From assembly GCF_048403405.1 (NCBI RefSeq), contig NZ_CP183129.1: a DNA stretch of 64,000 bases; one strand, 5' to 3'. Positions 40,201 through 43,200 of this stretch are shown piece after piece. The position numbers are program-made. This DNA is from Escherichia coli (GTDB lineage Bacteria > Pseudomonadota > Gammaproteobacteria > Enterobacterales > Enterobacteriaceae). Numbering within the stretch: the first letter of the stretch is position 1; each line of letters starts with the position of its first letter.

Positions 40201-43200
40201 CGGCTTGAGCAGACCTATGATCCCGGAAAAGCGAATTATACGGCGCATTCAGTCTGGCGGTTGTGCTATCCATTGCCAGGATTGCAGCATCAGCCAGCTT
40301 TGCATCCCGTTCACACTCAACGAACATGAGCTTGATCAGCTTGATAATATCATTGAGCGGAAGAAGCCTATTCAGAAAGGCCAGACGCTGTTTAAGGCTG
40401 GTGATGAACTTAAATCGCTTTATGCCATCCGCTCCGGTACGATTAAAAGTTATACCATCACTGAGCAAGGCGACGAGCAAATTACTGGTTTCCATTTAGC
40501 AGGCGACCTGGTGGGGTTTGATGCCATCGGCAGCGGTCATCACCCGAGCTTCGCGCAGGCGCTGGAAACCTCGATGGTATGTGAAATCCCGTTCGAAACG
40601 CTGGACGATTTGTCCGGTAAAATGCCGAATCTGCGTCAGCAGATGATGCGTCTGATGAGCGGTGAAATCAAAGGCGATCAGGACATGATCCTGCTGTTGT
40701 CGAAGAAAAATGCCGAGGAACGTCTGGCTGCATTCATCTACAACCTGTCCCGTCGTTTTGCCCAACGCGGCTTCTCCCCTCGTGAATTCCGCCTGACGAT
40801 GACTCGTGGCGATATTGGTAACTATCTGGGCCTGACGGTAGAAACCATCAGCCGTCTGCTGGGTCGCTTCCAGAAAAGCGGTATGCTGGCAGTCAAAGGT
40901 AAATACATCACCATCGAAAATAACGATGCGCTGGCCCAGCTTGCTGGTCATACGCGTAACGTTGCCTGATTTTTCCGCATAACTCACTATCCTTCTGTCA
41001 TATCATTAAATTTTTCTGATTTATTGATCTGGCAGAAGGTTCATCACTGTTTCATTCACCAGATATGGGTTAATCTTTTAATTACAAACTGCGTTGACAG
41101 TTGTTGTAAGGAGACCCTGTATGGCTATGTATCAGAACATGCTCGTTGTTATCGATCCTAACCAGGACGACCAACCAGCATTGCGGCGAGCTGTTTATTT
41201 ACATCAACGGATTGGTGGCAAAATTAAAGCCTTTTTGCCGATCTATGACTTCTCATACGAAATGACCACCCTGCTCTCTCCGGACGAACGTACCGCTATG
41301 CGTCAGGGCGTCATCAGCCAGCGTACAGCCTGGATCCACGAGCAGGCAAAATATTATCTCAATGCTGGCGTTCCCATTGAAATTAAAGTGGTCTGGCATA
41401 ACCGTCCTTTCGAAGCCATCATTCAGGAAGTGATCAGCGGCGGGCACGATTTGGTGCTAAAAATGGCGCACCAACATGACCGTCTGGAAGCGGTGATTTT
41501 TACGCCAACGGACTGGCATCTGTTACGCAAATGCCCAAGCCCGGTGTGGATGGTGAAAGACCAGCCGTGGCCGGAAGGGGGTAAGGCGCTGGTGGCGGTG
41601 AATCTCGCCAGTGAAGAGCCGTACCATAATGCGCTCAATGAAAAACTGGTCAAAGAGACGATCGAACTGGCGGAACAAGTCAACCATACCGAAGTTCATC
41701 TGGTTGGCGCTTATCCGGTAACGCCAATTAATATCGCGATTGAACTGCCGGAATTTGATCCGAGCGTTTATAACGATGCCATTCGTGGGCAACATTTGCT
41801 GGCAATGAAAGCCCTGCGGCAGAAATTCGGCATTAATGAAAACATGACGCACGTAGAAAAAGGTCTGCCAGAAGAGGTGATTCCTGATTTGGCGGAGCAC
41901 TTACAGGCGGGGATTGTGGTTCTGGGCACGGTAGGACGCACCGGTATTTCAGCAGCATTCCTCGGCAACACGGCAGAACAGGTGATTGATCATCTTCGCT
42001 GCGACCTGCTGGTCATTAAACCTGACCAGTATCAGACACCCGTTGAACTGGATGACGAAGAAGACGATTAACGACTCTTCAATAACTGACAAGGCCCGAG
42101 TTATCGGGCCTATTTTTTACTTACTGCTCTTCGCCGCCAAGGAAATAAATTCCCAACGGGATTGCCAGCAACACAGTAAAGACCAGGCTATAAACAAAAA
42201 TCATTGATGACTGAATCACATACATTGATGTCGTCCACTCAGACAGCGGAATATTGTACTGTTCTATCACGCCGCCGATGGTCGCGCGAGTCACAACCGA
42301 CGCCGCAATAATGAAAACCGCCAACAAACCAAAGAGAAATTTCTTCCCTTTCGCTGACTTCAGTTTCGCCATAATCATGATGTAATCCTTGTGCAGACAA
42401 ATTTCTTGTTACCTAAACGTAACAATACCATGACATTTCACCGTTGTCTGCTCTGAAAACCTCACCTCTTAGCTGGATTTACAATCAACGCATTGATTAG
42501 TTAGCTAATGTTGCTACTTCCTTCCCTGACTATTGATGATCTGAATGAATTGTCGCGGTAAAATAGCCCCGCCAGGGGTTTCCGGCATGACGACAATTAT
42601 CTGGAGGAGCCTGATAAAACAATGATCGCTGAACTGTTTACAAATAATGCGCTTAATCTGGTCATTATTTTCGGTAGCTGCGCAGCATTGATTCTGATGA
42701 GCTTTTGGTTTCGCCGCGGAAATCGTAAAAGAAAAGGTTTTTTATTCCATGCGGTGCAATTTTTAATCTACACCATAATTATCAGTGCTGTTGGTAGCAT
42801 CATTAATTATGTTATAGAAAACTATAAACTCAAATTTATCACCCCAGGCGTTATCGATTTTATCTGTACGTCCCTGATTGCGGTTATTCTGACGATTAAG
42901 CTATTTCTGCTGATTAATCAGTTTGAAAAACAGCAGATTAAAAAAGGTCGCGATATCACCAGTGCGCGGATTATGTCGCGTATCATCAAAATCACCATTA
43001 TTGTGGTGCTTGTTCTGCTTTATGGCGAACATTTCGGCATGAGCCTTTCTGGCTTGTTGACCTTTGGTGGTATTGGTGGTCTGGCTGTCGGTATGGCCGG
43101 TAAAGATATTCTGAGTAACTTCTTTTCCGGGATTATGCTCTATTTCGACCGTCCTTTTAGTATTGGCGACTGGATCCGTTCACCGGACAGAAATATCGAA

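Follow-up and report, generated by a model that had tools for sequence, protein, structure and literature searches.

The comparisons described below point, with a probability of about 0.96, to a reading in which the DNA between ynaJ and ynaI in the window (i.e., the whole 64-kb stretch of Escherichia coli DNA analyzed here) is the ancestral, never-occupied spacer of natural, non-K-12 E. coli, and in which the IS5 insertion that K-12 carries at this position is derived. In the proposed mechanism, one IS5 copy (IS5F/insH4) would have inserted in the K-12 lineage at the TTAG located at 42501-42504 and would have duplicated those 4 bp, and the window would be without that K-12-lineage event. The empty site is the ordinary, species-wide state, and it is the K-12 reference that departs from the rest. 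The K-12 IS5 copy at ynaI/ynaJ is already catalogued, and the finding is already known; the exact coordinate of the empty site, together with the conserved promoter motifs of the spacer, may help annotation.

The empty IS5 target in the window and in MG1655

Based on an ORF reading of the window, uspE and ynaJ form a convergent pair, followed by ynaJ and ynaI as a divergent pair (Table 1). A first-pass annotation of this DNA had placed a divergent gap of 243 bp at 42379-42621, and the ORF limits confirm these coordinates exactly. The RefSeq annotation of strain 4621 (CP103479) gives ynaJ and ynaI the same limits, with the same 243-bp gap between them, and records no feature in that gap.

Table 1. 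Features of the ynaJ-ynaI locus, in window coordinates
Feature	Position	Strand	Basis and remarks
ynaJ	42121..42378	-	ORF; DUF2534 inner-membrane protein, 85 aa; name per MG1655 and strain 4621 annotation
ynaJ-ynaI divergent spacer	42379..42621	.	243 bp exactly, from ORF limits; uninterrupted, read as the ancestral allele
Conserved GTTACCT block adjoining the predicted ynaJ start	42408..42414	.	5/7 columns invariant
ynaJ extended -10 candidate, TGgTATTGT	42422..42430	-	Relaxed scan; 17-bp spacer to -35; hexamer 6/6 columns invariant
ynaJ -35 candidate, CAGACA	42445..42450	-	Relaxed scan; 5/6 columns invariant, 16 sequences
Unoccupied IS5 target, TTAG (CTAA on the K-12 + strand)	42501..42504	.	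IS5-removed MG1655 alignment and megablast
ynaI weak -35-like element, ATGATC	42536..42541	+	Relaxed scan; in the partly conserved ATGATCTG block; weak support
ynaI -10 candidate, TAAAAT	42559..42564	+	Relaxed scan; 6/6 columns invariant across Escherichia, Citrobacter, and Salmonella
ynaI Shine-Dalgarno, GGAGGAG	42603..42609	+	Read from sequence; invariant within E. coli
ynaI	42622..43653	+	ORF; low-conductance MscS-family mechanosensitive channel, 343 aa; name per MG1655 and strain 4621 annotation

The gap had also been described as lacking a transposase, and several searches bear this out. The IS5F element of MG1655 (1,195 bp) has no blastn match in the whole 64-kb window, the 16-bp IS5 terminal inverted repeat (GGAAGGTGCGAAcAAG) has no match window-wide at up to 3 mismatches, and the ORFs within the spacer reach at most 31 aa. 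By blastn and ORF search, then, the spacer is without an element of ~1.2 kb encoding the DDE transposase InsH/Ins5A. A search for short repeats across 42300-42700 returned repeats of 8 to 14 nt, the size expected by chance, and no MITE or IS remnant.

For an absence of this kind, the informative test is not one against chance but the comparison with K-12. That K-12 does carry IS5 between these genes, as the first-pass annotation had stated, is evident from NC_000913.3, in which "insertion sequence:IS5F" is annotated at 1396044-1397238, with insH4 (b1331), between ynaI (b1330) and ynaJ (b1332). The alignment to MG1655 that had been proposed alongside the claim finds an IS5 at this position, and the flanks match the window closely: joined without the 1,195-bp IS5F/insH4, they amount to 247 bp, an excess over the window of 4 bp that corresponds to the target duplication (CTAA/TTAG), and once IS5F and one CTAA are removed the two spacers are identical at 243/243 positions. 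The MG1655 insertion reads CATTAGCTAA, then IS5, then CTAACTAATC, with CTAA on each side of the element, whereas the window has a single copy; the megablast segments of MG1655 likewise abut at 42501-42504 and overlap there by 4 bp. Thus, the locus and its flanks are shared between MG1655 and the window, but the target in the window is empty. The flanking duplication is not present in the window, and the junction is clean, i.e., a single-copy target without partial IS sequence. This TTAG fits the IS5 target consensus, YTAR, and its distance from the ATG is 126 bp for ynaJ and 121 bp for ynaI.

Could the absence of IS5 instead be an artifact, with a repeated IS copy lost through collapse or skipping when the source genome was assembled? 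Assemblies are well known to collapse at IS elements. However, 25 kb of the window is 100% identical to strain 4621, a human blood isolate, and the same stretch is found at 100% identity and in one piece in OX030728, a complete genome independent of 4621, so that the stretch is unbroken in two independent complete genomes; two more genomes match it at 100% over 98% of its length. Given this agreement and the clean single-copy target, we regard the chance of an artifact as close to negligible. Nor, judging from its sequence, is the window K-12-derived, because its identity to MG1655 is 96.6 to 98.3%, segment by segment, the Rac prophage is absent, and the 25 kb noted above is identical to 4621.

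Occurrence of the insertion across E. coli and its relatives

The population set consisted of the 5,426 complete E. coli genomes in RefSeq. With a 130-bp probe spanning the site, 5,056 of them (~93%) proved uninterrupted. The ynaI-side IS5 junction was found in 355 genomes and the ynaJ-side junction, detected with a 40-mer able to match only across the junction, in 347. When 60 evenly spaced records were drawn from the 347 ynaJ-side matches, all 60 had chromosomes of 4.53 to 4.79 Mb, and nearly all bore K-12 names (e.g., MG1655, W3110, BW25113, DH5alpha, DH1, J53, C600/EC600, MC4100, JM83, XL10-Gold, and O16:H48); each record sampled thus resembles a K-12 laboratory strain, and the K-12 ancestry of the 347 to 355 junction genomes is accordingly a judgment based on the names and sizes of sampled records. 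The few sampled junction genomes with animal or human "hosts" have sizes like those of J53/EC600, and we take them to be conjugation recipients of that kind.

Natural E. coli strains outside K-12 resemble the window closely. The spacer is 243 bp in each of CFT073, SE15, O157 PA8, and the divergent E500002, a set that spans different phylogroups, with the TTAG target intact, and the spacers of CFT073, SE15, PA8, and 4621 are 95 to 100% identical to that of the window, with no notable difference. Loci outside this set were located by a degenerate-codon DNA scan for a YnaI motif, using one genome per species. In this way, 15 further divergent ynaJ-ynaI loci were retrieved, with spacers of 238 to 249 bp; the retrieved loci are those of E. 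albertii, E. whittamii, Escherichia sp. E1V33, E. coli E69, ten Citrobacter-type genomes, and two Salmonella enterica subspecies. None of the further Escherichia, Citrobacter, and Salmonella genomes retrieved has the site occupied. The arrangement of the window, in which the K-12 flanks are joined with one copy of the target, is therefore the one common to non-K-12 E. coli and the outgroups. Because 5,056 of the 5,426 genomes are empty, the outgroups are empty, and the junctions occur in K-12-type genomes, we conclude that the empty site is very probably ancestral and the K-12 insertion derived.

Is it possible that an ancestor of the window carried IS5 here, as K-12 does, and then lost it by precise excision? 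IS elements are capable of this, and the tandem TTAGTTAG at 42497-42504 looks superficially like the footprint of a duplication. However, MG1655 has three copies of TTAG, arranged as TTAGTTAG, IS5, and TTAG, so the tandem pair is older than the insertion, and the upstream TTAG shows ordinary variation between strains, reading TTTG in E500002; the three copies in MG1655 and the strain-variable first TTAG rule out TTAGTTAG as an excision footprint. Moreover, IS5 occupancy is confined, in the sampled records, to K-12-type genomes, and the uninterrupted state prevails in 93% of complete E. coli genomes and in all of the Escherichia, Citrobacter, and Salmonella loci retrieved. Precise excision is thus very improbable, and a spacer that was never occupied remains by far the better account of the window.

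The K-12 copy itself has a known record. It is copy 4 of the 11 IS5 copies in BW25113, for which a precise deletion has been built (PMC11677980), and a W3110 stock that recurrently lost ynaJ-uspE-fnr owes this deletion to the IS5 at b1331 together with a second IS5 to the left of ogt (PMC2072959); earlier fnr deletions in MG1655 stocks are cited in the same paper (PMC2072959). In the population set, the ynaJ-side junction occurs in eight fewer genomes than the ynaI-side junction (347 versus 355). Two K-12 records were one-sided: in the W3110 record CM143902 only the ynaI half of the probe matched, and in the C600 record CM181231 only ynaJ up to the IS5 junction matched. The imbalance between junctions and these one-sided records are consistent with IS5-mediated adjacent deletions or rearrangements. 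IS5-mediated ynaJ-uspE-fnr deletions, including those that involve the ynaI/ynaJ copy, are a feature of K-12 and cannot operate in the IS5-free window. That is, the K-12 copy serves as a recombination substrate for the loss of ynaJ-uspE-fnr in some MG1655 and W3110 stocks, and the same region of the window is without this substrate.

Promoter-like elements of the spacer and a possible effect of IS5

A strict sigma-70 consensus scan of 42300-42700, at a threshold of 9 of 12, found no promoter-like sites. The promoter candidates in Table 1 come from a relaxed scan, with 8-of-12 hexamer matches, combined with cross-genus conservation in a 16-sequence alignment drawn from three genera (Escherichia, Citrobacter, and Salmonella). 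The mean major-allele frequency over the whole spacer alignment is 0.70, and the promoter-like elements stand out from it. On the ynaJ side, the block AACAATACCATGACA (42421-42435) around the -10 candidate is invariant in 13 of its 15 columns. On the ynaI side, ATGATC has a mean major-allele frequency of 0.88, with two of six columns invariant. The central stretch at 42495-42519, which includes the IS5 target, has a mean major-allele frequency of 0.75, versus 0.59 for its neighbor.

In this model, the spacer would carry regulatory DNA of both genes: a conserved ynaJ promoter (CAGACA-17-TGgTATTGT) with a predicted start near 42415, a conserved ynaI -10 (TAAAAT) with a predicted start near 42571, and, between these two putative promoters, a moderately conserved central block that contains the IS5 target. 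The assignments of both promoters and of their start sites are inferred from motifs and conservation; in the literature that could be searched, neither gene had a mapped start. An imperfect palindrome, GTTAC-N6-GTAAC, at 42408-42423 overlaps the predicted -10 and start of ynaJ. Its left arm, GTTACCT, is kept in the three genera, and the loop and two inner bases of the right arm vary; candidate roles for the palindrome are those of an operator half-site and of an mRNA 5'-end feature.

The possibility that the conserved segments act as RNA was also considered. Rfam covariance models had no match in 42000-43000 at an E value of 1 or below, and this region therefore contains no known sRNA or leader. 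The strict scan gave one terminator-like hairpin, on the - strand (42587-42570), which was assigned no role: it precedes ynaI but is on the wrong strand for it, and its conservation does not extend beyond Escherichia. The fold of the ynaI leader (42540-42630, +) was rejected as well, being no better than shuffled sequences (z = -0.76), and the GCCCCGCCAGGGG hairpin in this leader is found in Escherichia only. A fold on the ynaJ side (42370-42460, -) scored z = -2.9 and was set aside as RNA structure because its stems map onto the -35 and -10 DNA motifs that are conserved; the inner pairs of the small GTTAC/GTAAC stem on this side vary across the alignment. We read the conservation on the ynaJ side as probably acting at the level of DNA and not of RNA structure.

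What would the insertion do to these elements? Each predicted core promoter is found between the IS5 target and its gene, with the K-12 junction at about -67 from the predicted ynaI start and about -86 from the predicted ynaJ start. Given this placement, K-12 probably retains both cores, and only its upstream DNA is no longer contiguous. The first-pass annotation had spoken of an "uninterrupted promoter region of both genes"; as a description of contiguous upstream DNA this is reasonable, but the promoters are predicted from motifs invariant across three genera and K-12 probably keeps both cores, so the contrast with K-12 should be narrowed to the upstream region.

Could the absence of IS5 nonetheless be functionally relevant, with the regulation of ynaJ and ynaI in K-12 departing from that in the wild-type arrangement of the window? 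There is a documented precedent. IS5 activates glpFK, fucAO, and flhDC with its 3' end facing the promoter, at positions -99.5 to -169.5, and this 3' end has an IHF site and a permanent bend (PMC2753651). In MG1655, insH4 reads toward ynaJ, so the IS5 3' end is ynaJ proximal, in the orientation reported for glpFK, fucAO, and flhDC activation (PMC2753651). Given that the 3' end faces ynaJ, an effect on ynaJ expression is conceivable; ynaJ has been described as highly expressed in K-12 (bioRxiv 10.1101/2024.03.27.586983), and the target lies in the moderately conserved central block. On the other hand, each gene of K-12 still has its predicted core promoter next to it, ynaI mRNA is easy to detect in K-12 (PMC3508906), and activation by IS5 depends on phase and context (PMC2753651). 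Our search for literature on an IS5 effect on ynaI/ynaJ found none, and the literature found on IS5 reports no effect at this locus. On balance, we consider a regulatory difference of any kind doubtful, and it is a little less likely still that IS5F rewired ynaJ and/or ynaI expression specifically through its IHF-site-bearing, bent 3' end or by splitting the shared central block.

Promoter activation by IS5 is documented for K-12 copies (at glpFK, fucAO, flhDC, and bgl) and is impossible in the IS5-free window. If the rewiring were true, K-12 data on YnaI and YnaJ expression would be unrepresentative of the species, and the genuine wild-type regulatory unit would be the one seen in the window. 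With the spacer intact in ~93% of complete E. coli genomes, K-12 regulatory studies of ynaJ and ynaI have in any case used an IS5-split form of this upstream region.

Further differences between the window and MG1655

Several other differences from MG1655 were seen in the window. The Rac cryptic prophage, 23 kb in MG1655 (1411899-1434958), is absent; at ~23420-23650 of the window the uspF side runs directly into an intact ttcA, with the attachment region, where the alignments overlap, at 23603-23645. Between smrA and mcaS/abgR, the window has 3.6 kb (30286-33886) that is missing in MG1655 and that contains a frameshifted DHA2-family MFS efflux permease, an HlyD-family protein, and a divergent AraC-family regulator. 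Between ycjY and mpaA there is an intact gene for an SDR-family oxidoreductase of 212 aa (47682-48320); K-12 has a deletion of ~660 bp at this locus, where only the remnants ymjC and ymjD are annotated, and the extra DNA of the window spans 47820-48481.

An IS200C element (~26302-27006, with tnpA at 26405-26863 on the - strand) lies inside the terminator poly-U tail of the FnrS sRNA, whose gene is on the - strand and ends at ~27007. In MG1655, the end of fnrS reads GAGTCGGCTTTTTTTT (8 T) followed by GCCTG; in the window, GAGTCGGCTTTTTT is followed by GTGCACAG, the body of the IS200, and then TTTT and GCCTG, so that 6 U are left to the FnrS of the window before the IS200 end. A 40-mer probe for this FnrS-IS200 junction reached a coverage of at least 80% in no more than 11 genomes of the 5,426-genome set. 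Partial matches to this probe came from other IS200 copies and were followed by similar A/T runs, which suggests that IS200 prefers the T tracts of terminators.

Lastly, the convergent gap between uspE and ynaJ (42072-42120) holds a hairpin, AAGGCCCGAGTTATCGGGCCT, flanked by runs of A and T. Single-molecule and cryo-EM work on colliding RNA polymerases has used this hairpin, a bidirectional terminator, as its model.
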